A stretch of 64,000 nt of DNA from an uncultured Gemmatimonadales bacterium (GTDB lineage: Bacteria > Gemmatimonadota > Gemmatimonadetes > Gemmatimonadales > GWC2-71-9). Numbering within the stretch: the stretch's first letter is position 1; every line of letters begins with the position of its first letter. The stretch lies in the NCBI GenBank assembly GCA_963842945.1, contig CAWJIM010000016.1:128001-192000 (forward strand), written 5' to 3'. This document shows, piece by piece, positions 2,111 through 24,796 of this stretch. The position numbers were made by a program, and so were the translations under genes. Below the pieces are notes generated by a model that did no database searches, was not told where the DNA came from, and worked only from the letters and a program-made list of their open reading frames with translations.

Positions 2111-2172
2111 GGTAAGCGGTAAGCGGGGAGCCGTAAGCGGTAGCCGCTCACTGCTCACCCTCACCGCTCACG
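2111..2172. repeat. Inverted array of degenerate 7-bp tandem repeats (GGTAAGC-type, then GCTCACC-type)
   Basis: GGTAAGC GGTAAGC GGGGAGC CGTAAGC GGTAGCC, then GCTCACT GCTCACC CTCACC GCTCAC, between aspS and phoH. Confidence 0.8.
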
Positions 2173-3935
2173 CTTCGCCTCCAGGTGTAGGGCCTTCAGG
2201 TCCGCGGCATCAACCGGGCTCGGGGCTCCTTCGAACAGAGCTCGTTGCGCCGTCGTTTTGGGAAACGCAATGACATCGCGCAGCGATTCGGCCTGCGCCA
2301 GGAGCATGACGATCCGATCAAGACCAAAAGCAAACCCGCCGTGGGGGGGAGCCCCTGCCCTGAGTCCCTCCAGCAGAAATCCGAACCGCTGCTCCGCCTG
2401 TTGCTCGGGAATGCCGAGCAGGGAAAAGACCCGCCGCTGGAGAGAAGGATCGGCGATTCTGAGACTGCCCCCACCCAGCTCGGTGCCATTCAATACCATG
2501 TCGTAGGCCAGCGCGCGCACCCGTTCCGGGGCTGACTCGAGCAGCGGCAGATCGTCCGGATCCGGAGCGGTGAATGGATGGTTCACCGAATTCAACGCTC
2601 CGGTTTTCGGATCGCGCTCGAACAGCGGGAAGTCGATGATCCAGACGAATCGGTTCTGGCCCTCATCGATGAGGTTGAGCCTGGTGGCCACTTCGCTCCT
2701 CACCCGGTCCAGCGCCGGGCTGGAGACGTGGTCCGGCCCGGCCACCAGGAGCGCCAGGTCTCCATCGTGAAGCCCGAGACGACCGGACGCCTCGGTGGGG
2801 AGAAACTTGGCGGCAGGCCCCTCGAGGGCCCCCCCGGTAGCCTTGAGCCGCAATAGCCCCGCTGCTCCCGAGCGCCTTGGCAGCGGCTTCGACCTCGTCG
2901 AGCTGCTTACGACTGAGGGACGCCCCACCACTGACCCGGATTCCCCGCACCCGCCCGCCGGCTTCGATCGCTTTGCGGGTGACGGTAAAGTCGGACCCAC
3001 GGAAGGCCGTCCGTAGCATCGAAAATCTCCAGACCGTAGCGCAGATCCGGTTTATCGGTGCCGTATTTCTCCATCGCATCGGCGTGGCGGAGGCGTGGGA
3101 TGGGCAGCGACAGCTGGTGCCCCCCCTCGGACCAGAGCGTCTGCACCAGACCTTCACCGAACGCCAGCACGTCTTCCAGGCCGATGAAAGACGCCTCGAT
3201 GTCGATCTGGGTGAACTCAGGCTGACGGTCTGCCCGTAGATCCTCGTCCCGAAAGCAGCGGGCGATCTGAAAGTATCGGTCGAGTCCGGCCATCATCAGG
3301 AGCTGTTTGTATAGCTGAGGAGACTGGGGCAGCGCGAAGAACTCACCGGGGTGCACCCGGCTGGGCACCAGATAGTCGCGGGCACCTTCCGGCGTCGGCT
3401 TGGTGAGGATGGGTGTCTCGATCTCGAGAAACCCGTGCTGGTCGAAATACCGGCGGGTGGCCTGCATCAACCGATGGCGCAGGATCAGGTTCTGATGCAG
3501 CTCGGGACGGCGGAGATCGAGAACCCGGTGGCGGAGCCGGAGCTCCTCGGCGGGGAGCTCCTCCTTCTCCTTGCGAGCCACCGGAATGATGGGGGTCTGG
3601 GCTGGCCCGACGATCTCGAGTGCCGTGGCATGGACCTCGACCTCGCGGGAGCCGAGACGCTGGTCGCGCGACGGCTCGGGCCGCAGCGCCACAGTGCCGG
3701 TCACCAGCACCACCGTTTCCGCGCCCAGGCCGGCGGCGCGCTCTATCACCTCGGGCGACGTCCACTCCGGATTGAAGGAGAGCTGCACCAGCCCGGCCCG
3801 GTCGCGGAGATCGACGAACACGAGTCCGCCCAGATCACGCCGGCGGTGCACCCACCCGCCTAGGCGGACCTGCTGGCCCAGCTGCTCTCGGGTGAGCGCA
3901 CCGCCCCGATGGGTCCTGAGTGCGGTAGCCCCCAT
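2161..3935 (-). CDS. aspS: Aspartate--tRNA ligase (frameshifts near 3005 and 2870)
   Basis: GWVHRRRDLGGLVFVDLRD, PEGARDYLVPSR, LPQSPQLYKQLLM, ARCFRDEDLRADRQPEFTQIDIE, YGTDKPDLR, GAPPHGGFAFGLDR, DVIAFPKT spread over three frames. Confidence 0.97.
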
Positions 3936-4393
3936 CAGACGCGGGTTTCCGCCTCGGCGACGACGGCGCAAAACTCCTGAGCCGTGGCGGAGGCGCATAA
4001 CTGCTGGCGGAGGTCCTCTCGCCGCACGAGCCGGGCTATCCGACTCAGGACTTTCACGTGCTGACCGGCGGAAGACTCAGGGCCCACGATGAGGAAGAAG
4101 AGGCGGACGGGCTCTCCATCGATTGAGTCATAGGGAACCGGCAGTGCGCTTACCCCGCACACGACTGTGAGCTCCCGAACCGCGGCCGAGCGGGCGTGCG
4201 GAATGGCTACTCCGAAGCCAATTCCGGTGCTCTGAACGGCTTCACGCTCCTCGACGGCTCCGAGTACTTCGGCGAAGGCTCCGCCGGAATGATCGGTCAG
4301 GTGGTGAATGAGCTCGGCGATGACACCAGCCTTGTCGCGGGCGGCCAGGGGGATCACTATCCGCTCTGGCGTAAGAAACTCAGTCAGGAGCAC
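3935..4393 (-). CDS. PTS EIIA (fructose/mannitol/Ntr-type) domain protein
   Basis: EREAVQSTGIGFGVAIPHAR phospho-His motif, DGEPVRLFFL, HVKVLSRIAR; probable GTG start at 4393. Confidence 0.9.
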   Translation of the reverse strand: MLLTEFLTPERIVIPLAARDKAGVIAELIHHLTDHSGGAFAEVLGAVEEREAVQSTGIGFGVAIPHARSAAVRELTVVCGVSALPVPYDSIDGEPVRLFFLIVGPESSAGQHVKVLSRIARLVRREDLRQQLCASATAQEFCAVVAEAETRV

Positions 4394-6152: not shown

Positions 6153-8921
6153 TCATCCCGTCGCCCCGAATCCCGCGGCAATCGTATTGATCGACAACAG
6201 CAGCGCGGACAGTTGTTCTTCCTGAGACTTGTCGCCGCCCGATTCCCGAAACCGCCGCAATAACTCGATCTGTTGCCGACTCACCTGGTTGATGGTGGGC
6301 AGCCGCCGCGCCAGTCGCCGCCGGAACCTGGGATAGCGCTCGACCAGCTCGCTTGCACCGCTGATCTTGAGCACCGCCTCGACCGTCCGCTGGTACTCCT
6401 CCTCAACCAGCGTCAGGATGGTGTTTCGCACCCCGGCATCGGGCACCAGCTCGGCATACTCCCGGGCGATCTCGAGATCCACATACGTCAGCGTCTTCTC
6501 CACTTCATCGACGACCAGCCGAAATAGCCGTGACTCGGTGAACATCCGATCCAGCAGCGCGGCCCCGCGTTGGCCGCGCACCTGGAGGAAGGTGAGAATA
6601 CCGCTTCCCACGCCGTACCAGCCGGGTACAAAGTGCCGGTTCTGCGACCAGGCAAACACCCAGGGGATGGCTCTGAGATCGCTCAGGGATCGGGCTCCGA
6701 ACCTCCGGGCCGGCCGGGAGCCCAGGTTGAGCATGGACAGCTCTTCCAGCGGACTGGCGGCCTGATAATAGGCCAGCAGATCCGGATGGTCGATCAGACC
6801 GCGATACGATGCCTGCGCCGCTCCCGAGAGCGCCTCCATGGCTTCGTCGAACTCCGCCGTGGGCGCCAGGGCCTTCTCGCGTTCCGACTTGACCGAGTGT
6901 TCCACCACACTCGCGGCCAACAGTTCGATCTGATATTGGGCTGTCCCCCGGTTGGCGTACTTGAAGGACACCACTTCGCCCTGTTCGGTGATCCGCATCC
7001 GCCCCTGGATCGAGCCGGCCGGTTGCGCCGCGATGGCCCGGCCGGTGGGCGCTCCCCCCCGGCTGACCGATCCCCCGCGCCCATGAAAGAAGGCAATGGG
7101 AATTCCGGCTTCCTGACCGAGGCGAGTGAGCTTGATCTGCGCCTTGCTCAGCTCCCAATTGGACGTGAGAAAGCCGCCGTCCTTGTTGGAGTCGGAGTAG
7201 CCGATCATCACTTCCTGCACCCCGCCTTGCGTCCGAACGCTCCGGCGAACCAGAGGCACGGAGAGCAGCTCGCGCATGATGGCGGGAGCCCGCTGAAGAT
7301 CCTCGATGGTCTCGAACAGCGGCACGATCGGAAGGGTGCAGCTCTCGGTTCCTGAGGTATCGGCAAAGAGGCCGGCGTGTTTCGCCAGAAGGTAGGCACC
7401 CAGCACGTCGCTCACACTTCGGGTCATACTGAGCACGAAGCTCCCAAAAGCCTCGCGGTCGATCTCCTCCCGAAGCTGCCGGACCAGTTGAAACATGCCC
7501 AGGGTCTCGGCCGACTCCGGCGGGAGTTCCGGTGCCTGCGCGTTCCGCGGCAGCGGACGGCCCAGCTCGGTCGTGATCCAGCGCCTCCACGCGTCAGAGT
7601 CTTCATCGGGAGGATCGCCTGCATTTGACTGGCGCCAAAGGTCGGCCAGGGCAGCGCGGAGCTTGGTCGTGTTCTCCCGCACGTCGAGACGCACGGTACT
7701 GAAGCGGAACGACTCGACTTCCCGCCGAACCGGCCGCACCAGTGTCGCGGCCAGCGAAACGCTCCCGGCCGAGCTGAGTGCGTCTTCGATTCGGCGCAGG
7801 TCACTGGCAAGAGCGTCGGCGGAGGAATAGCCTTGCGGACTGGTGACGATCTCGCCCCGCTCGGCGCCGGTCACCATCACATCCAGTCGCCCCAGCATGC
7901 AGGCGAGATACTGGCGGAACACTTCGCCCGGGTTGCGGGCCGCGATCTCGTCGCCCTCTCCGCTTGCCGCCAGCTCCTTCTCCAGCGCCGCCCGAAAGCT
8001 CTCGGGCACCGGCATGGCGCGCTCGGTGATGCTGAGCGCCCTGACCAGCTCTCCCAGACGGCGGCGGTAGCGGCGGAGTCCGGTGAGCCGATTCTCCAGC
8101 AGAGTACCCCGGGTCACCGCGTTGGTGACGAACGGATTGCCGTCGCGATCGCCACCGACCCAGGAGCCGAACTGAAAGAAGGGGGGCACCTGAAACGACT
8201 CTCCGGGATACGCCTGTGCCAGGGCCCGCTCCAGCTTTTCCAGCAGATCGGGCACGGACTCGAAGAGGGTCTCGTTGAAGAAGTGAAGCGCCCAGAACAC
8301 CTCCTGGGGCACCGTCGGCTTGACCAGGCGCAGCTCACCGGTGTTCCAGAGCAGCTCGATCTCGTTCTGTAATCCTGCTACCAGTGCCTGACGCTCGCGC
8401 GGGGTCCACCGGGGCGACTCCAGATCCACCAGGCGGCGATAGATGCGGCGGTGTTTTTCGAGAACGGTGACCCGTTTGGCTTCGGTGGGATGGGCGGTGA
8501 TCACGGGGCGAACCCTAAGGATCTCCAGCAGCTTCCGCAGCTCGTCGGCGGAGATCTTTGCGGCGGCCGCGCTGGAGATCACCTGGGCAAAGGTGCCCCG
8601 CACCTGGTCATACCCCCGGTCGACTTCCGTCTGCCGCCGCCGGCGCATGCCCGCATTCTGCTCGGCGATGCTCAGCAGCTGGAACCAGAGGCCCTGCACC
8701 TGAAGAGTTCGGGCCAGCAGATCGGGGCTGAGCTCGGAGGCGGGGCGTTCGCCGCGCAGTGCCGACTCCAACTCCGGTTGCCGCTCCCGTACCAGGCCGA
8801 GGAGCAAGCCGGAGAGAAGCTCGACAACCTCGTTGGCGTATGCGGCCGCGCTGGCGGCCGCCGGATCGGCCGACTCGGGAAGACCGACGGCGGAGAAGGG
8901 ATCGAGCAGGGTCTGGGTCAC
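6153..8921 (-). CDS. ppc: Phosphoenolpyruvate carboxylase (serine-cycle type)
   Basis: VITAHPTE, GSWVGGDRDGNP, VPLFETIEDL, QEVMIGYSDSNKDGG, FHGRGGSVSRGG, LRAIPWVFAWSQ; 922 aa. Confidence 0.97.
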   Translation of the reverse strand: MTQTLLDPFSAVGLPESADPAAASAAAYANEVVELLSGLLLGLVRERQPELESALRGERPASELSPDLLARTLQVQGLWFQLLSIAEQNAGMRRRRQTEVDRGYDQVRGTFAQVISSAAAAKISADELRKLLEILRVRPVITAHPTEAKRVTVLEKHRRIYRRLVDLESPRWTPRERQALVAGLQNEIELLWNTGELRLVKPTVPQEVFWALHFFNETLFESVPDLLEKLERALAQAYPGESFQVPPFFQFGSWVGGDRDGNPFVTNAVTRGTLLENRLTGLRRYRRRLGELVRALSITERAMPVPESFRAALEKELAASGEGDEIAARNPGEVFRQYLACMLGRLDVMVTGAERGEIVTSPQGYSSADALASDLRRIEDALSSAGSVSLAATLVRPVRREVESFRFSTVRLDVRENTTKLRAALADLWRQSNAGDPPDEDSDAWRRWITTELGRPLPRNAQAPELPPESAETLGMFQLVRQLREEIDREAFGSFVLSMTRSVSDVLGAYLLAKHAGLFADTSGTESCTLPIVPLFETIEDLQRAPAIMRELLSVPLVRRSVRTQGGVQEVMIGYSDSNKDGGFLTSNWELSKAQIKLTRLGQEAGIPIAFFHGRGGSVSRGGAPTGRAIAAQPAGSIQGRMRITEQGEVVSFKYANRGTAQYQIELLAASVVEHSVKSEREKALAPTAEFDEAMEALSGAAQASYRGLIDHPDLLAYYQAASPLEELSMLNLGSRPARRFGARSLSDLRAIPWVFAWSQNRHFVPGWYGVGSGILTFLQVRGQRGAALLDRMFTESRLFRLVVDEVEKTLTYVDLEIAREYAELVPDAGVRNTILTLVEEEYQRTVEAVLKISGASELVERYPRFRRRLARRLPTINQVSRQQIELLRRFRESGGDKSQEEQLSALLLSINTIAAGFGATG

Positions 8922-9894
8922 ACGACGGGATCGCGCAGCGGCGCACCACCGAAAAATTGCCGCAGGTTTTCGACCGCTCGCTGACCCATGGCCACCCGAG
9001 TTTCGTGGGTCGCGCTACCCAGGTGGGGAAGCAGGACCACGTTCTCCATGGTGAGGAGCTCGGGCGCGATTTGCGGCTCGTGCTCATAGACGTCGAGGCC
9101 GGCCCCGGCAATCGTCCCGTCGGCAAGAGCATCTACCAAGGCGGCCTCGTCTACCACGTCACCCCGCGCGGTATTGATGAGAAAGGCGCTCCGCCGCATC
9201 CGGGCCAGGCGCTCCCGGTTCATGAGATGGCGCGTCTCCGGCGTGGCTGGGCAGTGGAGCGAAACGAAGTCCGACTCTTCCAGAACCTCTTCCGGGCTCT
9301 GCCGTGAGCTCCGCCCCGAGCGCGGCCGCTTCCGGCGCCGAGGGTGGGTATGGGTCGTGAAACAGGATCGTCATGCCGAACCCCATGTGGGCTCGACGGG
9401 CCACAGCGCGGGCGATGCGGCCCATGCCGATCAAGCCGAGAGTCTTCCCGCTGATTTGGGAACCGAGCATGTGGGTGGGACGCCATCCGGTCCAGGCTCC
9501 AGAACGCACGTGGCGCTCCCCTTCCCCAGCTCGGCGACCCACCATGAGCAGCAGGGTCATGGCGATATCGGCGGTGGCTTCGGTCAACACGTCGGGAGTG
9601 TTCGACACTGAGAGCCCGCGTGACTTGGCGGCATTGATGTCGATGTGATTGTAGCCGACGCCGAAGTTAGCCAGCATGCGGGCGCGCAGCGGCTCGGCAC
9701 TGAGGACCTCGGCGGTGAGCTTGTCCGTCACGGTGCAGAGAAGCGCGTCGGCGGTGCGCAACGCGTCCTGCAAGTCCGGCCGCTCCGAGTGGTCGATCGT
9801 CGCGGTTGAGTCTGGCGTCGAAGTCGCGGGTCAGCTCCTCCTCGACAACCAACGGCAGCCGGCGCGTCACCACCACCGTGGCGCGGCTGGTCAC
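8918..9894 (-). CDS. D-glycerate dehydrogenase / hydroxypyruvate reductase (frameshifts near 9775 and 9300)
   Basis: [67 protein letters not shown] across three ORFs. Confidence 0.9.
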
Positions 9895-10805
9895 TTCACG
9901 GCGACCGTGGTGCGCTGGGATCGCCTGGCCAGCGCCGCGGCCACTGTGATGCCGAGCTCCGCCGGACTGGGTGCCACGGTGAGTCCTGCAGTGCGCATGA
10001 TCTCGGCCTTTTCCGCCGCGGTGTCGCCGAAAGCGGAGATGATGGCCCCTGCATGGCCCATGCGGCGGCCCTTGGGCGCGGTCAGACCGGCGACATACCC
10101 GATCACCGGCTTGCTCATGCTCTCCTTCACGAAGAGCGAGCCTTCCGCTTCCTGGGGGCCGCCGATCTCGCCAATCATCATCACGGCCTCGGTCTCGGGA
10201 TCTTCCTCGAACAGCTTGAGCATGTCGACAAAGGAGCTGCCGTTGATCGGATCGCCGCCGATGCCCACACTGGTGCTCTGACCGATGCCGAGCGCGTTCA
10301 TCTGCGCCGCGGCCTCGTAACCCAGGGTTCCGCTTCGGGTCACCAGCCCGACATGGCCGCGGGAATAGATGTGGCCCGGCATGATGCCCAGCATTGCCTT
10401 TCCGGCGCTGATGATGCCGGCACAGTTGGGCCCGATCAGCGTAGTGCGCCGCTCCTTGGGAAAGCGCAGCAGGTAGCGCTTCACCATCATCATGTCCTGC
10501 GCCGGTATGCCATCGGTGATGGTACAGATGAGGCGGATGCCGGCGTTGGCCGCTTCCATGATGGAGTCGGCACAGAACGCGGCGGGCACAAAGATGATGC
10601 TGGCGGTGGCGCCGGTGGCCCGCACGGCTTCTCGAACGGTGTTGAAGACGGGGCGTTCCAGGTGCCGGGTGCCGCCCTTTCCGGGCGTCACCCCGCCCAC
10701 GATCTTGGTGCCGTACGCCATCATCTCTTTGGCGTGGAACGTGGCCTTGTCGCCGGTGAAGCCCTGCACCAGCACCCGGGTAGTTTCATCGATGAGGATG
10801 CTCAT
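9891..10805 (-). CDS. mtkB: Malate--CoA ligase (malate thiokinase) alpha subunit, SucD family
   Basis: [57 protein letters not shown]; context with mcl and sgaA. Confidence 0.88.
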
Positions 10806-12031
10806 GACTGTCCATTTCCTCCGGCAAGACCGCTGGTGGCACGGCCGCGGGATGAAGCCTGAGACCGGGAGGCGTTGAAGGCTTGAACCACCCGCTCCGC
10901 CGCCTCGGAGAGACTATGCGCCGTGATGATTGGCAGACCACTGTCCTTCAAAATCCTCCGGCCTTCCTCGACGTTGGTGCCGGCCAGCCGAACGACGAGC
11001 GGTATGGTCAGTTGAGTTTCCCGAGCCGCTTGCACCACGCCTTGAGCGACCCAGTCGCAGCGGTTGATGCCGGCAAAGATGTTCACCAGGATGGCGCCGA
11101 TCTTCTCGTCTGACAGGACCAGACGAAAGGCCGCCGCCACCCGGTCAGGTGAAGCCCCCCCGCCCACATCGAGAAAGTTTGCCGGGTGTCCACCGGCGTG
11201 CTTGATCATGTCCATGGTGGCCATGGCCAGGCCGGCACCGTTGATGATGCAGCCGATGTCGCCCTCGAGCGCGACATAATTGAGCCCGTACTCGGCCGCC
11301 TGAGATTCCCGGGGATCCTCCTCGGCGTAGTCTCGCAGCTCGCTCACGTTGGGCCGGCGGAACATGGCGTTGTCGTCAAAGGTCATCTTGCAGTCGAGAG
11401 CCAGAACCTGGCCGTCCTTGGTCACCACCAGTGGATTGATCTCGACCATGGTAGCGTCGAGATCGCGGAACGCCCGGTACGCGCCCAGGAGGGTGGTGAC
11501 GGCGCGGCTCACCTGCGCAGGCGCGAGGCCGAGACCATACGCGATCTCCCGGGCCTGAAAGGCGCTCATCCCGATCGCCGGCTCCACAACTTCCCGGAGG
11601 ATCGAGTCGGGCGCGCTCTGCGCAATCTCCTCGATCTCCATGCCCCCTTGGGGGTGAGCCACGATCATGATGCGCTCGCTCTTGCGGTCGAGCACCAGGC
11701 CGAGATAGAGCTCCCGATCAATGGGCACGGCTGCCTCGATATAGAGCCGGTGCACCACTCTTCCCTCCGGTCCCGTCTGATGGGTAACCAGCCGCTTCCC
11801 CAGTAGGCCCTTTGCCGCCTGGCGCACCTCATCTTCATTGGAGCAGAGCTTGATGCCTCCGGCCTTGCCCCGGGCCCCGGAATGGATCTGCGCCTTGACT
11901 ACCCAGCGCGATCCTCCGATCTCCGAGGCGCGGTACACCGCCTGTTCCGGACTATACGCGACGCCACCTCGGGGAATGGCGACGCCGAAGCCGGCAAGGA
12001 GCTCTTTGGCCTGGTACTCGTGGATGTCCAT
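10802..12031 (-). CDS. mtkA: Malate--CoA ligase beta subunit, SucC family
   Basis: [67 protein letters not shown] (MtkA-like rather than the SucC NIFGGIVRCD). Confidence 0.9.
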
Positions 12032-12046
12032 GGTTGCTTCGCAGCT

Positions 12047-12148
12047 AGGAGTCGTGAGTCAGGAGTCGAGAGTTACGTGAAGAGCAGAAGCGCCAGCCGG
12101 AACGTTAGGAGACGGGAACTCCCGACTCGCGGCCCCTGACTCCCGACT
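12047..12148. repeat. Inverted heptamer arrays (AGGAGTC-type and GACTCCC-type) between mcl and mtkA
   Basis: AGGAGTC GTGAGTC AGGAGTC GAGAGTT (12047-12074) ... GACTCGC GGCCCCT GACTCCC GACT (12124-12148); the second array overlaps the mcl 3' end. Confidence 0.75.
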
Positions 12149-13082
12149 TGCTGTTAATAGCCTGGTCCGTATCGACCACGTTCTGAGCCATGCGGGCCGA
12201 CGCCGCATCGATCATCCGTCCATCGAGCTGGGCCGCCCCCCGGCCTTCGCGGGCCGCCTGCTCCAGTGCGTCCAGGATTCGCCGGGCCCGCTCCACCTCC
12301 TTGGCAGGCGGGGTGAATACCTCATTGGCCAGCGCAATCTGGGATGGGTGAATGGCCCACTTTCCTTCGATGCCGAGGGCGGCTCCGCGCCGGGCAGCAA
12401 GGGTATAGCCGTCCGGATCCTTGAAGTCTCCGAAAGGACCATCGATCGCGCGGAGCCCGTAGGCCCGGCAGGCCACCACCATTCGGGACAGCGCCGCGTG
12501 CCACTGGTCCCCCGGGTAATCGGGGTTCAAACCGCCGATGTTTACCGTTCGGGCCCGGCAGCTGGCGGCGTAGTCGGCGACGCCGAAGTGCATGGCCTCG
12601 AGCCGCCGGCTCGACTGGGCGATGGCCTCGACGTTGGCCATGCCCAGAGCAGTCTCGATCAACACATCGATCCCAATGCGCTGTTCGATGCCTTTCGCCT
12701 CTTCGATCTGGGTCAGCAGTGCGTCCACCAGGTAAACGTCGGCCGGCACACCAACTTTGGGAATCAGCACGATATCCAGCCGGTCGCCCGCCTGCTCCAC
12801 GACATCCACCACGTCCCGGTACATATAATGTGTATCGATGCCGTTGATCCGCACCGCAATCGTTTTGCCCCGCTCCCGCCAGTCGTGGTCGTGCAGCGCG
12901 GCTATGACGTTGAGCCGGGCCTGAGCCTTGTCGGCCGGCGCCACAGCGTCTTCCAGATCGAGGAAGATGCAGTCCGCCTCGCTCTCCAGGGCCTTCCGAA
13001 ACATTCCCGGCTGGGAGCCTGGAACCGCCAGCTCACTGCGCTGAAGCCGCGCCCGCGCCGGCTCGTAGCGGGTATGGCTCAT
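12105..13082 (-). CDS. mcl: Malyl-CoA lyase (CitE/HpcH family)
   Basis: RLQRSELAVPGS, FLDLEDAVAP, VRINGIDTHYMYRDVVDVVEQAG, LIETALG, HFGVADYAAS, IDGPFGDF, GKWAIHPSQI. Confidence 0.92.
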   Translation of the reverse strand: MSHTRYEPARARLQRSELAVPGSQPGMFRKALESEADCIFLDLEDAVAPADKAQARLNVIAALHDHDWRERGKTIAVRINGIDTHYMYRDVVDVVEQAGDRLDIVLIPKVGVPADVYLVDALLTQIEEAKGIEQRIGIDVLIETALGMANVEAIAQSSRRLEAMHFGVADYAASCRARTVNIGGLNPDYPGDQWHAALSRMVVACRAYGLRAIDGPFGDFKDPDGYTLAARRGAALGIEGKWAIHPSQIALANEVFTPPAKEVERARRILDALEQAAREGRGAAQLDGRMIDAASARMAQNVVDTDQAINSKSGVRGRESGVPVS

Positions 13083-14338
13083 CGCCCGGCGCCGACCGTG
13101 ACCTTCTTGGCTCCGCCGGAGGCGGGCTGCGCCTCGGGAGCCCGGGGTGGGAGATCTCGCTTGGATAAGGGAGCCGACGTGCTCCGCCAGTATTCCTGCG
13201 CCGCGGCCACGCCGCTGCCGAGAGTCACCTTCATGCCCACGTCCCGCATGGCCATCTCTGCCCCGGCGAGGGCGCCGAGCAACATCAGCTCGTTGAGATC
13301 ACCCAGATGACCGATCCGGAAAAGTTTGCCGGCCATGCGGGCGAGTCCGGCACCAAGGGCCAGATTGTAGCGCCGATACGCTACATCGATCACTTCGGCG
13401 CCGTTGATCCCCGGCGGAACCATGATCGCGGTGACCGTGTCGGAGTTCCACTTGGGCGCGCGGGCACAGAGCTCCAGGCCCCACGCCTTCACGGCCAGGC
13501 GGGTTCCTTCCGCCAGACGATGGTGGCGGGCAAAGACATTCTCCAGCCCCTCCTCCAGCAGCATGGCAATGGATTCCTTCAGGCCGTAGAGCATGGGAAT
13601 CGACGGCGTATAGGGGAAGTAGCCGGTGGCATTGGCCTTCCTCATATCACCAAAATCGAAGAACACCCGGGGCAGCCTGGCCTGGTCGTAGAGACCGAGC
13701 GCCTTCTGGCTCGCGCAGACGATGCCAAGTCCGGCGGGTAGCATGAAGCCCTTCTGGGATCCGGTAACGGCCAGATCCACACCCCACTCATCCATTCTGA
13801 AGTCGATGCTCGCGATGGAGCTCACCCCGTCCACCATGAGCAGGGCCGGGTGACGGGTCTCGCTCAGGGCACGACGGATTCCCGCCACATCGCTGGTGAC
13901 CCCGGTGGCAGTCTCGTTGTGGGTAAACAGCACCGCCTTGATCCGATGTGCGCTGTCAGCCGCCAGCGCCTCCTGGTACCGCTCGATGGGCGCGCCCTCT
14001 CCCCACTCCGCATCCAGCACCTCGACATCCAGGCCCAGTCGCTGCGCCATGTCGATCCAGAGATGGCTGAACATCCCGAACCGGCCGGCGAGCACCCGGT
14101 CGCCCGGGGATAGAGTGTTCGAAAGCGATGCCTCCCAGGCTCCGGTCCCACTCGCCGGAAAGAGGAATGGCTGGCCGGAAGTGGTTTTGAAGACTTTCTT
14201 CAGGTCCTCGAAGATCGGCGCCACGAAAGCTGGAAAATCAGAAGAGCGGTGATCTTCCATGGTGCGGTGCATGGCCCGGAGAACGCGGTCGGGCACGTTG
14301 GTGGGCCCGGGAACGAAAAGAAAGTTGCGGCCGGCCAT
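13079..14338 (-). CDS. sgaA: Serine--glyoxylate aminotransferase (PLP class V)
   Basis: MAGRNFLFVPGPTNVPDRV, SGTGAWEA, HNETATGV, VDGVSS, GSQKG (PLP Lys), GYFPYTP, FRIGHLG; GAGG RBS before ATG 14338. Confidence 0.93.
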   Translation of the reverse strand: MAGRNFLFVPGPTNVPDRVLRAMHRTMEDHRSSDFPAFVAPIFEDLKKVFKTTSGQPFLFPASGTGAWEASLSNTLSPGDRVLAGRFGMFSHLWIDMAQRLGLDVEVLDAEWGEGAPIERYQEALAADSAHRIKAVLFTHNETATGVTSDVAGIRRALSETRHPALLMVDGVSSIASIDFRMDEWGVDLAVTGSQKGFMLPAGLGIVCASQKALGLYDQARLPRVFFDFGDMRKANATGYFPYTPSIPMLYGLKESIAMLLEEGLENVFARHHRLAEGTRLAVKAWGLELCARAPKWNSDTVTAIMVPPGINGAEVIDVAYRRYNLALGAGLARMAGKLFRIGHLGDLNELMLLGALAGAEMAMRDVGMKVTLGSGVAAAQEYWRSTSAPLSKRDLPPRAPEAQPASGGAKKVTVGAGR

Positions 14339-14353
14339 GGGGACCTCTTGGAA

Positions 14354-14381
14354 AGATGGCAGACTAGAGATGGCAGACTGA
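14354..14381. repeat. Four heptamer units (14-bp tandem duplication) in the sgaA 5' leader
   Basis: AGATGGC AGACTAG AGATGGC AGACTGA. Confidence 0.75.
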
Positions 14382-14402
14382 GGGTACGTCAGATTCTTCC
14401 CG

Positions 14403-14431
14403 ACCATAACACTTTGTGAACTTTTTCACAA
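14403..14431 (-). promoter_or_regulatory. Predicted sigma70 promoter of the sgaA operon
   Basis: Minus strand: TTGTGA (14431-14426), 17 bp, then TATGGT (14408-14403) preceded by an extended TGn. Confidence 0.7.
14414..14431. promoter_or_regulatory. Rex-type operator
   Basis: Perfect palindrome TTGTGAA-CTTT-TTCACAA, matching the established Rex consensus TTGTGAA-N4-TTCACAA. Confidence 0.8.
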
Positions 14432-14474: not shown

Positions 14475-15765
14475 TTGCTGGGAAACCTTTACTCTGCTGC
14501 CACCGACGCGGTTGCGCCAGGACCGGCTCTGGCGCGACGGCTGGAGGCTGCCCCCGAGAGTGGCCGGCCGGTCTGGATTCTGGCTCTCGGCAAAGCCGCG
14601 TTCCCCATGGCGACCGCTGCACTGGACGTACTTCGCCGGCGCGGAACCTCCCCTGCCGGTGGACTGATCGTGGGCCCGGCCGAGGCGACCAGCCCGGATT
14701 CTTCTCTCGAGTGCACCGCCGGAGACCACCCGGAGCCGGGACAGCGGTCCCTGGCGGCAGCGGCCGCGCTGGAACGAACGGTAGGGCGGGTTCCGAGAAC
14801 CGATGAAGTCTGGCTTCTGCTTTCGGGTGGAACCAGCAGCCTGATTGCCGCTCCGGAGCCCGGACTGACGCCGGCGGAGCTGACATCGATCTATTCCCTG
14901 CTTCTGGGCTCAGGACTCGACATCACCGCGATGAACCGGATTCGCAAGCGGTTCTCCCGCTGGGGTGGTGGGAAGCTGGCTCGAGCCCTGGCGCCGGCCA
15001 AAGTCCGCGGATACGTGATCTCGGATGTGATAGGGGACGACCTCGCCTCCATCGGATCGGGTCCGTGTGTTCCGGACCCAACCACCGCGCGAGAAGTTCG
15101 CGAGCAATTGGAGCAAGCCGGCATTTGGCGTCGACTACCCGAAGCAGGGCGGTCCCTGGTGCTTTCGGTGGAAGCGGGAGAACGACCCGAGACTCCGAAA
15201 CCCGGAGACCATGCATTTGCCGGAGTGAGCCTCGAGGTGATCGCCAGTAACCGGCTGGCCTTGGAGGCAGCAGCCGGAAGAGCTCGCGAGCTTGGTCTCA
15301 CGCCGGTGGTAGTGGGATAGGCCGATATCGGGCGAAGCAGCACCTGCCGGGGCGCTGCTGGCCCGCAGTCTACTCGATCGCTGCGCGCAATCGGATATCG
15401 AAACAGACACTCGGGTGTGCTTGATCTGGGGCGGCGAAACGACGGTGAGTCTGGGCGAGCAACCGGCTGGGCTCGGTGGCCGCTGCCAGGAGCTGGCGCT
15501 CGCCGCCGCGAGAGCCTTGAGCGGTACATCCGAGAGAGTTGCCCTGCTGGCGGCGGGTACCGATGGTCGAGACGGTCCTACCGATGCGGCCGGAGCCATA
15601 GTGGACGGCCGGACTTGGCAGGCCATCGAGAGCTCGGGGCGCAATCCTGCTCAGGATCTGGCCGACCACAATTCCTATCCGGCGCTCGACGCCGCTGGAG
15701 CTCTACTCCGAACCGGACTGACCGGAACCAATGTGATGGATGTAGTGATAGGCTGCTGCCTCTAG
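14475..15765 (+). CDS. Glycerate 2-kinase (DUF4147 + MOFRL), frameshift near 15315; start uncertain
   Basis: LGKAAFPM, GDHPEP, LLSGGTSSL, SDVIGDDLASIGSGP, WGGETTV, GGRCQEL, AGTDGRDGPTDAAGA, TGTNVMD. Confidence 0.9.
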
Positions 15766-18375: not shown

Positions 18376-18799
18376 CGGGCTTCAACTCCGCCAGCTCTCG
18401 GCGCCAAAAGTCGCGGTTGGACAGCTCGGGATGAGGAATGATAAGGTCAGGCTCGGCTACCCGCCTCTCTCCGAAGCGAACGATATCCAGATCCAGGGTG
18501 CGCGAGCCCCAACGCTCGGTTCGCTTTCGGTCCTGCGCCTGTTCAATGGCCTGCAGGGCCTGGAGCAGCTGCCGGGGCTCGAGGCGAGTTTCCAGGAGAA
18601 CCATCTGATTGAGATAGGGAGGTTGTTGCTTGCCACCCAGCGGCGCGGTTTCCTCGATGCTGGAGGCGGAAACCAGAGTGGTATCCGGCAGAGCCGCTAA
18701 GGCCGCACGCGCTGCCCGTAGATGGCCCTCCCGGTCGCCCAGGTTGCTGCCCAGCGCCACGTAGGCCTTCTCCGGCAGTCTTCGCTCAGACCTCGACAA
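18365..18799 (-). CDS. folK: 2-amino-4-hydroxy-6-hydroxymethyldihydropteridine pyrophosphokinase (start approximate)
   Basis: [36 protein letters not shown]. Confidence 0.93.
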
Positions 18800-20867
18800 C
18801 AAAGTGACTCGCGATCCGCTGGAGATCGGAAGCGAGGTCGCCGAGCTCGCGGATGGACCGCTCCAGCTCAGCCTGTCCGGCCGAGGCTTCTCCCGCCCGT
18901 TTGGCAAGTGTATCGGTATCGGCCCGGCTCTTGGCCGAACTGGCGGCAACCTGCTCGATCTGACCGGTGAGGGAGTTCACCGCGTCACGCTGTTGTGCTG
19001 CAGTGGCAGCAATGGCCTTGGCGTGGCCGCCAGCCTCGCCAGTGGTCCCCACGATAGCATCCAGCGCCTTGGCGGCATCGGCGCTCAGCTCTTCTACTCC
19101 GGCCACAACATCTCGGCCACGCTCCATCTGGCTGGACACGGACGATACCTGATCGGCGATTTCGCCGAGCAACCCGCCGGCTTCCTGAGCAGCGTGCAGG
19201 CTTTGCGCGGCGAGCTCCCGGACCTCGGAGGCAACGACGGCAAAGCCCCTGCCCTCCCGACCGGCTCGCGCGGCTTCGATCGCGGCGTTCAGGGCGATGA
19301 GATTGGTCAGATCGGCGATCTCACGGATGGTGCCAATGAAACCGGTGATGCGCTGAGTCAGCGCGCCGAGGGAAGCAACCCGATCGGCGCCGCCGGCGAC
19401 AAAGCCCTTGAGCTCGACCAGCCGGGCGATGGCGTCGCCGATGACGTCGCGGTTGCGGGCCGCAACCTCGGCGGCCGTGCCGCTTGCCGCCGCGGCCTGG
19501 GCTCCCTGATTCATCATTTCCTGCGAGGCGTTCGCCAGCGATCCGGTTGCGCGGAGCCCGCCGGTAGCGAACCGCTCCAGCTCCATGGCACCCTGACGCA
19601 TGCCCAGCGAAACATCGGCCAGCGCGCTCGCGGAGGTTCGCAGCGAGTCTGCGACCCGAGCCAGCGAGGTGACCTGCTCACCGATCTGCCCCACGGTCAG
19701 CACCAGCGGCCGCCGGAGCTCGGCAATATGAATGGCCGTGGCCATTTGGCCAGCCAGTGTGCTCATGGCCAACAGATCTTTGGAGCGATAGACGTGACGC
19801 TTCTGGTGTTCCACCTCGAGCAGGCCCAGGATGTCATCACCGAACCGAATGGGATGGATGACCAGAGACAGGGCGTGGCGCAGCACTCCGGCCACGCGGT
19901 CGTCCTTGCGGCTATCCCGGATCACGAGCGCCTCTCGAGTTTCCAGCACTGCCTGTCTGAGGGCCGCCACTTCCGAAGGCGGCTCGCCACGATTGGGCCG
20001 GCCCATCGAGCTGCGGAAGACCAGGGAAATCTGCGATCCGTTCACCCGGTATACTCGAAAGTCGCTCCAGTCGAGCAGACGATAGCCGAGCCGCTCGATT
20101 TGGGTGAAGGAGCCCTGAAGGGTGGCATTACTCGCGATAGCCCCCTCCATCAAGTGGACCTTGTTCAGGTCCTCGGCGCCTATCGCCTCATCCAGAATCT
20201 GACGGGCGAGCAAGCCCACGACACCAAGGGCAAGTGCGACGGCTACCCAGGCGCCGGGCTCCAGTTTGGCCAGGGTGGCAATCACGATCGTAGTGGCGAT
20301 GAGAGTCAGCAGGTACGAGCTGACCTCCCAACGCAGGATCAGGATCTTCTCGGCACTCTCCAGCTTGTTGCGGACCAGCAGGCTGAAGTAGAAGAGAGCC
20401 CGACTCAGGAAGAAGTAGAGGGCGACAAGGATGGCAGCGGCTGGTAGAAAATCCAGGGTCACCTCGTTGGTCCCACCCATCGCGAGAATCGCGGCGTAGG
20501 CACCATAGGCCGCCACAAAGCTGATTACCTCCCGGCCGGCGTTGATCACGCCGGATCGCGGGGGCTTCCGGAGACCGAAGACGTCTGCGGCCGCTACCCC
20601 GACCCACAGCGCGGCGGCAACCGGCGACGGCCCAACGCATACCGCTCCGACGAGTGTGGGTATGGCCGATTGGGTCAGGTAGGAATACTTGCTCAACCGG
20701 ACCGGCACGGCCCGAAGGGCAAAGATGGTGAGCATCAATACACTGGTGGAGATGGGGCTGGCCATCCACCGGGAATCGACCGCCAGCACTCCTGCCAGGA
20801 GTGCGAGCCCGCCCAGCCAAAGCATTCTGCTGTAGCCGTTCAGCAGCCCCTGGACCTTGATGGTCAT
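18786..20867 (-). CDS. Methyl-accepting chemotaxis-like protein: multi-TM N-terminus, GAF-like domain, MCP signalling domain
   Basis: [37 protein letters not shown] hairpin tip; GAF-like DSRKDDR...[17 protein letters not shown]; about 7 hydrophobic helices. Confidence 0.88.
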
Positions 20868-21655
20868 CCGTCTACCCCACTGTCCAGGCCTGCGCGAAGC
20901 CGGCGAAGAAAGCGGGCCGCTTCGCGGACGCCATCGCGGCCCAGAACATCCACCAGGGCGCTCCCGACCACGACACCATCAGCCATTTGCCCCACGGCGT
21001 GCGCTTGCTCGGGCGTTGAAATGCCAAATCCGACCGCTACCGGCAGTGGGGTGGCCCGCCGCACTTGCCCGATCGACTCCGCCAGGTTCCCTGACAACGA
21101 CGCGGTAGCACCGGTCACACCGAGTCGGGCAACCAGATACACAAATCCCTGAGCCCCTGCGACAGCGACTTTCAATCGAGCCGCCTGCGTGGTAGGGGCG
21201 ATCAGCCGGATGAGATCGAGACTGCTGGCCTGAACCGCGGACTCCACCGCAGGATCGGATCCGGCCGGCAGATCGGTCAGGATCAAGCCGGCCACGCCCA
21301 GAGCCCCGGCATCGGCAAGGAAGCGGTCCATGCCGTAACGCAGAATCGGATTCAGGTAACTGAATAACACAACGGGTCGGTTGAGCTCGAGCTCCGCAAT
21401 GAGCTGGATAGTCCCGGGCAGGGTCATGCCCTGTTGCAAGGCCTGGAAAGTGGAGCGCTGGATAGTGGGGCCGTCGGCCAGCGGATCGCTGAATGGAACA
21501 CCCACTTCGATGATGTCCGCCACCTCCGCTGCCGCCCGAATCGCCGCGCCACTCGTGTCCCGGGTGGGATAGCCCGCCGTGAGATAGGGGATCAGGGCTC
21601 GCCGTCCGTCGGATCGGAGGGCAGCCCAGGTCCGCGTTAGCGGCGAATCAGACAA
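20864..21655 (-). CDS. trpA: Tryptophan synthase alpha subunit
   Basis: [43 protein letters not shown]. Confidence 0.96.
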
Positions 21656-23105
21656 AGTAATCGCCAACCGTGATCCCATAGCGCGATGGATTAGTGACTT
21701 TGATGATCGATCGCCGATAAGCCCCGCTCTGATCCTTCTCGCTCAAATCAACCCCGAGCCCGGGCGCTGGAACCGGTCCGCCGTCGGCATCCACCGCAAT
21801 CCGCACCAGGGGCCGCTTGAGCTGTTCGCCATCAGGATTTGGAGCGGACACGACGGCCACCTCGAAGCTGTCGAGAATGACGCAGGTGCCAACCGGGTAG
21901 ACGCCGATCAGATTGATCAACGCCTTCACCAGAACCCGGTCGTAGCCCCGGTTTGGGTTCTCCCACATTTCCCGGAGCACCTGGTCAGGCTCGATCGGCA
22001 CGGTCTGGTACACCCGGCGCGTGGTGGCGGCATCGAAGCCGTCGGCCACGGCGACGATGCGCGAGAAAATGCCGAGGGTCCGAGGCCGGACGACCTTGGG
22101 GTAGCCGGTCAGGTCCGATTTCATATGGTGCTCGTGGGCCACCAGGATCGACCGGTACGGGATCTCCTCGTACCCGCGCATGCTGAAGAGGGTCAGAGCG
22201 CCATACCATGGGTGCGACTGGATCACCTTCCACTCGTGCTCGTCGAGCTTTCCAGCCTTGTTCAAAATTTCCGGCGGGATCCTCGCTTTGCCCACATCAT
22301 GCAGCAGGGCGGCCATGCCCAGATCGCAGAGCTGGGGTTTGGAGAGTCCCAGCTTCTTGCCCAGTGCGACCGAGAAGATGCAGACATTGACGGAGTGGGT
22401 GAAGGTGTATTCGTCGTAATCGCGAATGGTGGTCAGGCCCACCATCGAGATCTCGTTGTTGAGCACCTGGTCCACCACCATCTGGACGGCGCGCTTTACC
22501 CGTTTGAGGCCGGTGGCGCGGCCCAGGCGTACCCCGGCGATCACATCCTTGGTCACCGCCACGCCCTGGGCGTACACCTGCTTCGAGGCCTGCCGGGCTT
22601 CGGCCGAGCTGCTGCCCTCCGTGGGCAGACCGCGCTCGATCTCCAGGTCGGCGACCTTGGCGGTATCGAGCCTTTCGTGCAGTTCCTTGAGCCGTTCTTC
22701 CGCCGAGCCCCGTCCCGCCAGGCTGAGCAGGAGGCTGAGGAAGATCTGCCACTGCCGGCGGTCGGTGCCGGTCTTCACTCGAAGAGCCCCGATCTCGTAT
22801 CCCCGAAAGATCGCGAGGATGTGGCTGAACGAGGCGTAATTGTCGAGCTCGAGCCGGAGGCGGGTAGAGTTTACGAAGATGAAATCTCCGGCCAGCCGGA
22901 TCTCCAGTTCGATCTCACTCTTGAGCAACGCCCGCGTGGTGTTGTCCAGGTCGCTGAGCGACTTCTGGACGGTAGCGTTCTCCAGGGGATACAGCTTGAG
23001 GCTGCGAAGCGCGGTGTACAGCGCGAGCAGCAGTGAGCGGCCGCCCTGACGAAGCTGTCCGTCATCGCCGGGAGCGCCGGTAGCCAGCTCGATCGGGCTG
23101 CTCAC
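21648..23105 (-). CDS. HD-GYP domain protein (putative c-di-GMP phosphodiesterase) with N-terminal domain
   Basis: DEYTFTHSVNV, LHDVGK, HEHH...GYP, VADGFDAAT.RRVY. Confidence 0.9.
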   Translation of the reverse strand: MSSPIELATGAPGDDGQLRQGGRSLLLALYTALRSLKLYPLENATVQKSLSDLDNTTRALLKSEIELEIRLAGDFIFVNSTRLRLELDNYASFSHILAIFRGYEIGALRVKTGTDRRQWQIFLSLLLSLAGRGSAEERLKELHERLDTAKVADLEIERGLPTEGSSSAEARQASKQVYAQGVAVTKDVIAGVRLGRATGLKRVKRAVQMVVDQVLNNEISMVGLTTIRDYDEYTFTHSVNVCIFSVALGKKLGLSKPQLCDLGMAALLHDVGKARIPPEILNKAGKLDEHEWKVIQSHPWYGALTLFSMRGYEEIPYRSILVAHEHHMKSDLTGYPKVVRPRTLGIFSRIVAVADGFDAATTRRVYQTVPIEPDQVLREMWENPNRGYDRVLVKALINLIGVYPVGTCVILDSFEVAVVSAPNPDGEQLKRPLVRIAVDADGGPVPAPGLGVDLSEKDQSGAYRRSIIKVTNPSRYGITVGDYFV

Positions 23106-24796
23106 CGGGCGGCCTCACGCAGCGCGCGGCTGACGGCGTTCCGAACCACCAGCTCCTTGTCGTCCTGGGCCCGCTGCAGCACCTCCCGGGCTTCGGGAGT
23201 CTTCAGTCGCCCCAGCGCCATTGCGGCGCATGCGCGGATCTCCGGAGGTTCCTTCATCCGCAGCAAGCCACGCTCAAGCAGAAGCGCGCCGAGCGGCTTC
23301 AGCGCATTGGCTCCGGCAATGGAACCATAGGCTTCGAAGAAGGCCATCTTCTCGGTCAGGTCCACGTCCTTGAGCGCTTTGCCCAGGACGACGGCTTCGA
23401 TTCGCCGGAGGGCGCCCTTATAGCCGCGAGAACCGGCAGACCGTACGGCAGCGAGCCGGACGTTTCGATCGCTGTCCTCGATGGCTCTGTCCACCACCGT
23501 CATTGCGCCGGGGGTACCGAGCAGGCCCAGCGTTTGGACCACGGCAAGGCGGATGGCGGGATCGGGATGATTGATGGTCTCTCCCAGCCCCTGAACGGCC
23601 TGATGCAGACCCAAGCGGCCACACAGGGTGACCATTCCGAGCAAGGACGGGGAGTCGGGCAGCTTGAGAATTCGCTGGACCTCCGCCGGATAGGCATGCG
23701 CCAGCCGATCGACGACCTCCTCCAGCATCTTTCGCAGCGGTTCGGAGGTGAGATTGGGCAACCAGCCCACCAACGGCTCCAGCGCAGTTGCCCGAAGCTC
23801 GCGCAACACTTCGGCGGCATAGGTTTCCACGCCAAGATGGCTCGCCTCGTCGAGGGACTGCAGCAGCTGTCCCACGATAGCGGGCTCGCTCAACTTGAGG
23901 ACAAAAACCTCGAGCCGTTCGGTAAGCTCCGGCTGCAGTTGTGCCGCTTTTTCTCGCAGCACCTTGGATTCGCGGAGCACCGCGGCGGCGCTCCGGAAGT
24001 CGCGGGCGTTGAGAAGATTGGGGAACAGCCGCTCCAGAGCCCGGAGAATCTCCTGCCGGACGTTCAGGTCCGGATTGATCTCGAACAGGTCGAACAAAAT
24101 GTTGAACGCGCTGCCTCGAACGTCTCGCTGATATTCCTCCTCCAGCTCCCGAGCCAGGTAGCCGATCTCGGCTTCATCCAGGAAGTAGAGAGTGGAGTCA
24201 ACATCATCGATATCAATCAGACTCTTGGCTCGAGCGGGTGCTTCCTCCGCGACTTGCGCCTTTCGGTCAGCGGGAGTCTGCCCTTGGCCTAGCGGCTGAC
24301 CCGTGGCTTGCGGCATGGCCGTGCCGCCACCCTCGCCGGTGAAGAAATCGATGAAGCGATACTCGATGAATTCGAATTCCTGTTCCCACAGGAGGGTCGG
24401 CAAATCGTCGCCGGCATCGGGTGGCAGAAAGCGCGCCCGGTTGATCGTGGCCAGAAGGAGCGGCAGCTCTTTCCCCTCGGCTCCGCGGCGGATGGTCACG
24501 GCACGCATGCCGTCCTTGAACAGACTCCAGCTCAGACTCTCGTTCTTGTTGTTCTGCCGGTAGACGACCTGTTCTTCCCAGGTGAACTCAGACTCCGAGA
24601 TGTTCAGCACCAGCTCGTCGGTCCCCGACCAGATCGGAGCACAAGCTGCCTGGACGTTCTGAACGGCCCGCTGATGAATCGGGTTGTTGGGCAGGTAGAT
24701 CTGGAACGCCCGAAGCGCCTTGACCATCGCCGCGACCAGCTCGACCACCTGAGCTGTGGGAACAGCCGTGGGCTGGACCTCGGGCTGGGCCGTCAC
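23102..24796 (-). CDS. HEAT-repeat protein
   Basis: [56 protein letters not shown]. Confidence 0.85.

Follow-up and report, generated by a model that had tools for sequence, protein, structure and literature searches.

A putative Rex operator on the likely promoter of a serine-cycle operon in an uncultured genus of Gemmatimonadota

The serine-cycle operon and its predicted promoter

The window analysed here is a stretch of 64,000 nucleotides, C16:128001-192000 of the genome G000, whose assembly of 4.30 Mb has a GC content of 65%, is divided into 24 contigs and is 86.9% complete with 6% contamination. Its minus strand carries a string of six genes that starts with an sgaA-like class V aminotransferase gene (13079..14338). 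The protein has the Pfam domain Aminotran_5, and its top NCBIfam match is the aspartate-glyoxylate aminotransferase BhcA, with 631 bits just under the cut-off of 650; the gene context suggests a serine-glyoxylate role. A malyl-CoA lyase-like gene of the HpcH/HpaI, CitE family (12105..13082) follows, with a 4-bp overlap with the end of sgaA, and after that come mtkA for the beta subunit of malate--CoA ligase (10802..12031; NF010647, 704 bits against a cut-off of 604) and mtkB for the CoA ligase alpha subunit (9891..10805; NF004230, 433 bits), which overlap each other by 4 bp. The fifth gene encodes a hydroxypyruvate/glyoxylate reductase-like 2-hydroxyacid dehydrogenase (hpr, 8919..9890, minus strand). 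Its frame is broken in the assembly; a fragment at 9159-9773 matches the models for 2-Hacid_dh and glyoxylate reductase, and the gene reads on to a TGA at 8919-8921, overlapping the GTG of ppc. This last gene of the string (6153..8921) encodes phosphoenolpyruvate carboxylase (Pfam PEPcase, 812.6 bits). The six genes are tightly packed, with overlaps or short gaps of which the largest is 73 bp, and a terminator scan of the minus strand from 6153 to 14338 found no terminator-like site.

Divergently from sgaA, on the plus strand, lies a gene for glycerate 2-kinase (gck, 14475..15765), the two domains of which are in different frames, DUF4147 at 14475-15320 and MOFRL at 15415-15765, with the frame break between 15320 and 15415. 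Six serine-cycle functions are in this way matched at least at the family level, namely serine-glyoxylate aminotransferase, hydroxypyruvate reductase, glycerate kinase, PEP carboxylase, malate thiokinase and malyl-CoA lyase, and mtkA is above its equivalog cut-off. C1 modules are found elsewhere in the genome, with scores of 858.8 bits for FTHFS and 228.6 bits for Fae, and scores beyond the TIGR03075 cut-off for three PQQ alcohol dehydrogenases, which does not imply an assignment of substrate. With these genes present, it is fair to speak of a serine cycle in a genome of the methylotroph type. Besides hpr and gck, broken frames are seen in aspS (two ORFs, window 2161-3998) and in a second copy of formate-THF ligase (C1:150808-152433). 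Downstream of trpA, at 18786-24796 of the window, there are genes for an MCP with a GAF domain, an HD-GYP-type HD_5 protein and a HEAT-repeat protein, all unrelated to the operator discussed below.

The spacer between sgaA and gck contains a perfect palindrome of 18 bp, TTGTGAACTTTTTCACAA (14414..14431, without strand), which is a predicted Rex operator. It had been pointed out in a first-pass annotation of the window as TTGTGAA-CTTT-TTCACAA, and the inverted repeat is confirmed to be exact, matching 14 of the 14 specified positions of TTGTGAA-N4-TTCACAA. The local GC content is 0.50-0.55, against about 0.65 for the genome. The same annotation proposed that one arm of the palindrome doubles as the -35 of an sgaA promoter with a 17-bp spacing and an extended -10, and this is backed by conservation in the relatives. 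The predicted -35 hexamer, TTGTGA (14426..14431, minus strand), is at the same time the left half-site of the operator, and TTGTGAAAAA stands at this place in 40/40 genomes of the genus. A spacer of 17 nt (14425-14409, minus strand) separates it from the predicted extended -10, TG-T-TATGGT (14403..14411, minus strand), with the TG at 14411-14410 and TATGGT at 14408-14403; in a comparison of the 40 genomes a TG-n-TA block with fixed spacing is aligned in most of the sgaA promoters. Transcription of sgaA would then start near 14396 on the minus strand, and a ribosome-binding site, AAGAGGT (14349-14343, minus strand), precedes the ATG of the aminotransferase at 14338-14336. The centre of the box is at about -26.5 relative to this presumed start. 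The box covers the -35 and the spacer of a promoter that is conserved throughout the genus, which is, for the promoter as predicted, the position of a repressor.

A sigma-70 promoter scan did not list the proposed promoter, which matches 8 of the 12 hexamer positions with the threshold at 9, and named TTCACA-16-AAGAAT on the same strand instead. We prefer TTGTGA-17-TATGGT because it aligns across the 40 genomes of the genus. Since the left half-site is the -35 in every one of these, the promoter alone explains part of the conservation of that half-site. Among public sequencing runs none holds half of the sampled words, and no coverage of the promoter was found in public RNA runs. Three rhizosphere RNA libraries have short contigs that are 90-99.5% like sgaA at 14058-14276 and gck at 14694-14957 and 14991-15190; as these matches are contigs, and the libraries may contain DNA, neither transcription nor a start site can be read from them.

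Rex, its boxes and a CRP-like regulator

The genome has one copy of rex (C18:98173-98793, 206 aa), as the first reading of the palindrome requires. The protein scores 66.7 bits with PF06971 and is above the cut-offs of two NCBIfam Rex models (NF003995, 246 against 126; NF003993, 239.5 against 217). Its match to chain 3ikt of Thermus Rex has an E value of 4e-47, Rex structures of Thermus and Thermotoga align with it at E about 5e-47, and the alignment to 3ikt, 1xcb and 5zz5 spans residues 3-204. The DNA-binding stretch QVRKDLSxFGxxGxRGxGY is kept, and so are the Rossmann motif GxGxxG (GAGKIG), FDxDP (FDSDP) and ILNFAP. The Asp of 'NVDF' in Thermus and 'NIDI' in Thermotoga, which we take to participate in the NADH switch of Rex, is aligned to an Asn in this protein, and the Arg of GMGRLG in Thermus, presumably also among the switch residues, is a Lys here and an Asn in Thermotoga. 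With Asp replaced by Asn at a residue of this kind, sensing of NADH is likely for this Rex, though not certain. In this genome rex is preceded, at a distance of 15 bp, by a box with one mismatch. In the comparison of rex upstream regions, for which the best 30 were taken out of 41 matching genomes, 30/30 loci from three families of the order have a box with 0-2 mismatches at 23-39 bp upstream of rex, and this fixes the Rex motif of the lineage.

In the whole genome of 4.3 Mb the pattern TTGTGAA-N4-TTCACAA occurs 1, 6, 1 and 33 times with 0, 1, 2 and 3 mismatches, and the site at sgaA is the sole perfect one. Six genomes simulated with a first-order Markov model of the same dinucleotide make-up gave means of 0, 0, 3.0 and 32.5. 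The seven sites with one mismatch or none, a class that had no member in any of the six simulated genomes, are a signal, and the sites with two and three mismatches are at the level of chance. On the window alone, a chance test allowing up to 3 mismatches tells little (0.46 matches expected and 1 observed, with at least one in 38 of 100 shuffles). The near-perfect boxes are few and coherent in what they precede: apart from sgaA, they are found before rex, before three ATP synthase operons (two atpZ-atpB-E-F-H loci and atpA-atpG), before a gene of the isocitrate lyase family and before the gene of a cupredoxin lipoprotein. There is also a weaker box before the nuoA-nuoB ORFs, 11 bp from the nuoA ORF, which has 3 mismatches with the core GTGAA...TTCAC intact; for sites with 3 mismatches our GC3-based call of coding and non-coding sequence is too crude to serve as anything but a rough guide. 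When 31 genomes of the genus were scanned, each had 4-7 boxes with no more than one mismatch, and the reversed pattern, used as a control, was absent from 30 of them and occurred once in the other.

The gene of the isocitrate lyase family (C24:27724-28907, 378 aa) is divergent from a gene for a GFO/IDH/MocA oxidoreductase. With one query it was found in 22/24 genomes of the genus and in 0/16 from two neighbouring families, and it carries the box in all 22 genus loci that have upstream sequence (2 of 24 loci are without). The best NCBIfam match of the protein is isocitrate lyase, and as the score of 167 is far under the cut-off of 562, the reaction it catalyses is not certain.

The two atpZ-atpB-E-F-H copies (C19:691977-699977 and C21:326608-334608) are syntenic and 71-81% identical in DNA, and each has a MoxR ATPase gene in divergent orientation and its own Rex box. 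The pair may be genuine paralogues, or may stem from a second, related genome in the bin, the contamination of which is 6%. The box at C24:199673 lies upstream of the gene for a lipoprotein of 310 aa with a C-terminal plastocyanin-like cupredoxin domain. In several relatives a box with this spacer type, TTGTGAACCCTTTCACAA, occurs in perfect form.

A protein of the Crp/Fnr family is also encoded in the genome (C2:219049-219726, 225 aa). Its recognition helix reads SSRETVSR (R-E-x-x-x-R), its best solved relatives are the CRP of Mycobacterium tuberculosis (the closest, E 1e-38), Thermus CRP, GlxR and E. coli CAP, and it scores 118 bits with the NCBIfam CRP model, below the cut-off of 266. The palindrome at sgaA contains the CRP core TGTGA-N6-TCACA, and a regulator of this cyclic-nucleotide type could bind the site instead of Rex or besides it, in which case the signal would be a nucleotide and not NADH. 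There are 14 exact copies of the core in the genome, and they split into two clean groups by the base at position 7. The four with an A there are the sites at sgaA, rex, atpA and the isocitrate-lyase-family gene. The other ten (C16:87320, C19:12312, C19:165532, C19:424412, C21:106566, C23:253372, C23:381442, C24:448435, C6:81128 and C8:17848) never have an A at position 7 nor a T at position 12, and the sgaA site has both. These ten compare with about 1.4 expected by our own arithmetic from base composition, and by the rough GC3 test none of them is within a long GC3-rich open reading frame. Nine of them were assigned a neighbouring gene that they lie upstream of, and these are genes for two PAS histidine kinases, a HAMP protein, a TPR protein, an outer-membrane efflux protein (OEP), GSDH/TonB, SRPBCC and UPF0182 proteins and one ORF without a Pfam match, and we think that the ten sites probably make up the regulon of the CRP-like protein. 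Two classes of sites with different bases and different gene themes point to two regulons, and the sgaA site is, in both its sequence and its theme, assigned to that of Rex. The box of the sgaA type before rex in every one of the 30 loci compared speaks against the CRP-like protein as well, and so does the centre of the site at about -26.5 from the presumed start, since the promoter classes at which CRP activates are not known to include a centre there. The first-pass annotation had named binding by another regulator, for instance of the CRP/FNR family, as what would overturn its reading. That concern holds insofar as a protein of the family is encoded, but its probable sites form a class separate from that of the sgaA site, and we consider control of sgaA by the CRP-like protein to be unlikely, though as far as the sequence tells it may cross-bind there.

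The reading that we prefer, and regard as quite probable, is that the palindrome at 14414-14431 is the operator of the single Rex, which would hold sgaA-mcl-mtkAB-hpr-ppc off until NADH rises. The presence of a rex gene, the box in front of it, the coherence of the box set and the distinctness of the probable CRP sites all support the identification of the palindrome as a Rex site. It could be argued that Rex binds here with gck as its main target, or that the control follows the general respiratory state rather than C1 assimilation. The operator ends only 43 nt from the TTG start (14475, plus strand) of the glycerate-kinase ORF, so that any gck promoter would also overlap it, and the remaining Rex regulon is respiratory; but the box lies exactly on the conserved -35 and spacer of sgaA, and on reading the sequence no convincing -10 for gck was seen downstream of the box. 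We find this quite unlikely, and it is a refinement of the main reading and not a contradiction of it.

Promoter forms across the genus

The sgaA upstream regions of 40 genomes of the genus were compared, 20 from a first draw and 20 from a draw on the phylum, leaving out three partial matches (L032, L035 and L036) in which the start of the gene is missing. The 18-mer has three discrete forms. On the sgaA strand the perfect form reads TTGTGAAAAAGTTCACAA and is present in 15/40 genomes, G000 among them. In 19/40 there is a form with two mismatches, TTGTGAAAAAAAGCACAA, in which the outer arms TTGTG/CACAA are kept, and the remaining 6/40 have a non-palindromic form, TTGTGAAAAAAGGTGCAA, with the promoter retained. 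Each form is invariant among its carriers, and the adjoining -10 region varies. Outside the genus the sgaA-type aminotransferase is common, with a match at E 1e-80 or better in 164 of 401 genomes of the phylum. Among 20 upstream regions of the aminotransferase from ten other genera, none (0/20) has a site with at most 3 mismatches, and two sgaA loci of another family from the first draw have no site. The conservation upstream of sgaA that the first-pass annotation looked for is partial. With a perfect box in 15/40 only and no site in the upstream regions compared from other genera, the pathway is not generally dependent on control by Rex, and the predicted link between Rex and the serine cycle is specific to this lineage.

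In a maximum-likelihood tree of the aminotransferase, which is a single gene, two sequences of another family served as the root, and 9 of 19 inner branches are left open. Three carriers of the two-mismatch form are placed at the base of the genus, and the other 17 rows form a poorly resolved clade with all three forms. The basal position of the two-mismatch carriers makes the perfect operator probably the derived form, which we say tentatively. It would probably have arisen from the two-mismatch form through changes at three bases, of which two are consensus positions.

The weakest alternative, that no regulator is involved and that the 18-mer is merely a promoter (a -35 and a constrained A-rich spacer) that has become palindromic by chance in one subclade, has in its favour that TTGTGAAAAA serves as the -35 in all 40 genus promoters regardless of the right arm and that six genomes keep the promoter without the palindrome, but we hold it to be very unlikely, since a chance change of the probably older two-mismatch form to the exact consensus is not to be expected when six simulated genomes of 4.3 Mb have no site with at most one mismatch, since each form of the 18-mer is invariant while the -10 region varies, which would be unexpected for a plain spacer, and since the other near-perfect boxes of the genome all precede typical Rex targets.

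Contamination was considered as a source of the site and rejected, as the site is on a contig of 258 kb with its own operon adjoining, and the identical 18-mer is found at the same place in 14 other genomes of the genus.

Proposed control and known systems

Control of the operon by Rex could work as follows. Bound at 14414-14431, Rex would cover the -35 and the spacer of the promoter of sgaA-mcl-mtkAB-hpr-ppc and block RNA polymerase, and any promoter that the divergent glycerate kinase gene may have would be blocked as well. At a low NADH/NAD+ ratio the genes would be kept off, and with rising NADH Rex would let go. Binding, repression and release by NADH at the sgaA site are proposed here by analogy with the established behaviour of Rex (PMC5355995) and with Rex structures. 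A build-up of reductant, as could occur during C1 oxidation or under oxygen limitation, would then raise the serine-cycle operon together with ATP synthase, complex I and a glyoxylate-producing enzyme. We infer from this that assimilation through the serine cycle and the glyoxylate node may be licensed by surplus reductant. It is plausible, if speculative, that such control suits the NADH-consuming reductase and the CO2-fixing PEP carboxylase steps, and the pathway might in that way act as an electron sink.

What is known of serine-cycle regulation comes for the most part from Methylobacterium. In M. extorquens the sga-hpr and mtk-ppc-mcl genes are controlled by QscR, a LysR-type activator that responds to metabolites of the pathway. 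The system predicted here is alike in being transcriptional control of serine-cycle genes, and differs in that the regulator would be a repressor that reads NADH/NAD+. Should the prediction hold, a direct NADH/NAD+ gate would be a control logic different from that of a LysR-type activator, and the NADH-consuming hydroxypyruvate reductase and the CO2-fixing PEP carboxylase would be tied to the supply of reductant. Rex regulons with the same motif were reportedly reconstructed by Ravcheev et al. in 2012 with the same comparative-genomic approach, and are said to comprise central carbon metabolism as well as energy metabolism in several phyla, with Gemmatimonadota and serine-cycle genes outside their coverage.

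The closest comparison is with Streptomyces. According to the portions of the study available to us, Rex of S. avermitilis binds the consensus TTGTGAANNNNTTCACAA at rex, atpI and nuoA1, the operators at atpI and nuoA1 include the -35 and lie between the -35 and the -10, and sites with 1-2 mismatches are bound better than those with 3 mismatches (PMC5355995). The Rex operators (ROP) of S. avermitilis and S. coelicolor given there are at rex-hem, atpIBEFHAGDC, nuoA-N and cydABCD (PMC5355995). As far as these portions go, the system predicted here has the same consensus, TTGTGAANNNNTTCACAA, a box at rex, ATP synthase and complex I in the regulon, an overlap with the -35, which in our case is predicted, and a regulator that is predicted to be a repressor released by NADH. 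It differs in belonging to Gemmatimonadota and not Actinomycetota, and in being known from sequence alone. A serine-cycle operon with a divergent gck and a gene of the isocitrate lyase family are unnamed among the Rex targets in the same portions of PMC5355995.

Another comparison is offered by Caldicellulosiruptor bescii, in which a Rex box on the serC/serA operon is described in the parts of two reports available to us (PMC8579813, PMC6391272). There Rex controls an operon the first gene of which is for a class V aminotransferase in serine metabolism. By the same parts, the operon of C. bescii belongs to an anaerobe that lives by fermentation, and serves to make serine through the phosphorylated route. 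The present one is of the serine cycle that runs over glyoxylate and hydroxypyruvate; it includes malate thiokinase, malyl-CoA lyase and PEP carboxylase, and the genome that contains it has methylotrophy genes. In a literature search that mostly left subscription journals outside, we found no published link of Rex with the serine cycle, isocitrate lyase, Gemmatimonadota or methylotrophs. What is new is the target pathway and the phylum, and the regulator and the type of operator are already known; as a prediction we consider this to be solid.

The lineage in question is an abundant, uncultured one from soil, which carries genes for methanol/ethanol dehydrogenase, H4MPT and formate-THF ligase, and the boxes described here constitute a first predicted Rex regulon in Gemmatimonadota. 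A wider interpretation, which we put forward tentatively and to which we give somewhat less than an even chance, is that Rex in this one soil genus may have taken over a node of C1/C2 assimilation. The serine-cycle operon, glycerate kinase and the isocitrate-lyase-family enzyme would then be placed in an NADH-gated regulon together with ATP synthase and complex I, the level of reductant and not a metabolite of the pathway would license assimilation, and the three promoter forms would be this rewiring caught in progress. Three such forms in one genus are a natural series for how a promoter gains an operator.

The sgaA leaders have features of their own. In the relatives (L014-L031 and L099-L116) they are mostly about 100-200 nt long and contain, some 40-50 nt ahead of the start codon, a GC-rich hairpin with arm pairs such as GCGAGAGCC...GGTTCTCGC, GCGGGAGCC...GCTTCCGC and GGTGGGGGCG...CGCTCCCGCC. 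The base changes preserve the pairing, and a T-rich run often comes after the hairpin. An Rfam scan of eight sgaA upstream loci gave no family for the hairpin, and a weak match to gyrA-RNA elsewhere (E 0.038). Blocks of GCATAAAAATTCAG and CCAATGTAGTC are present in the leaders of many members of the genus. In G000, as in its closest relative G011, the leader is short, at 58 nt, and lacks both hairpin and blocks, which are absent from 14339-14396 of the window. The leader hairpin, where it is present, may be a second layer of control.
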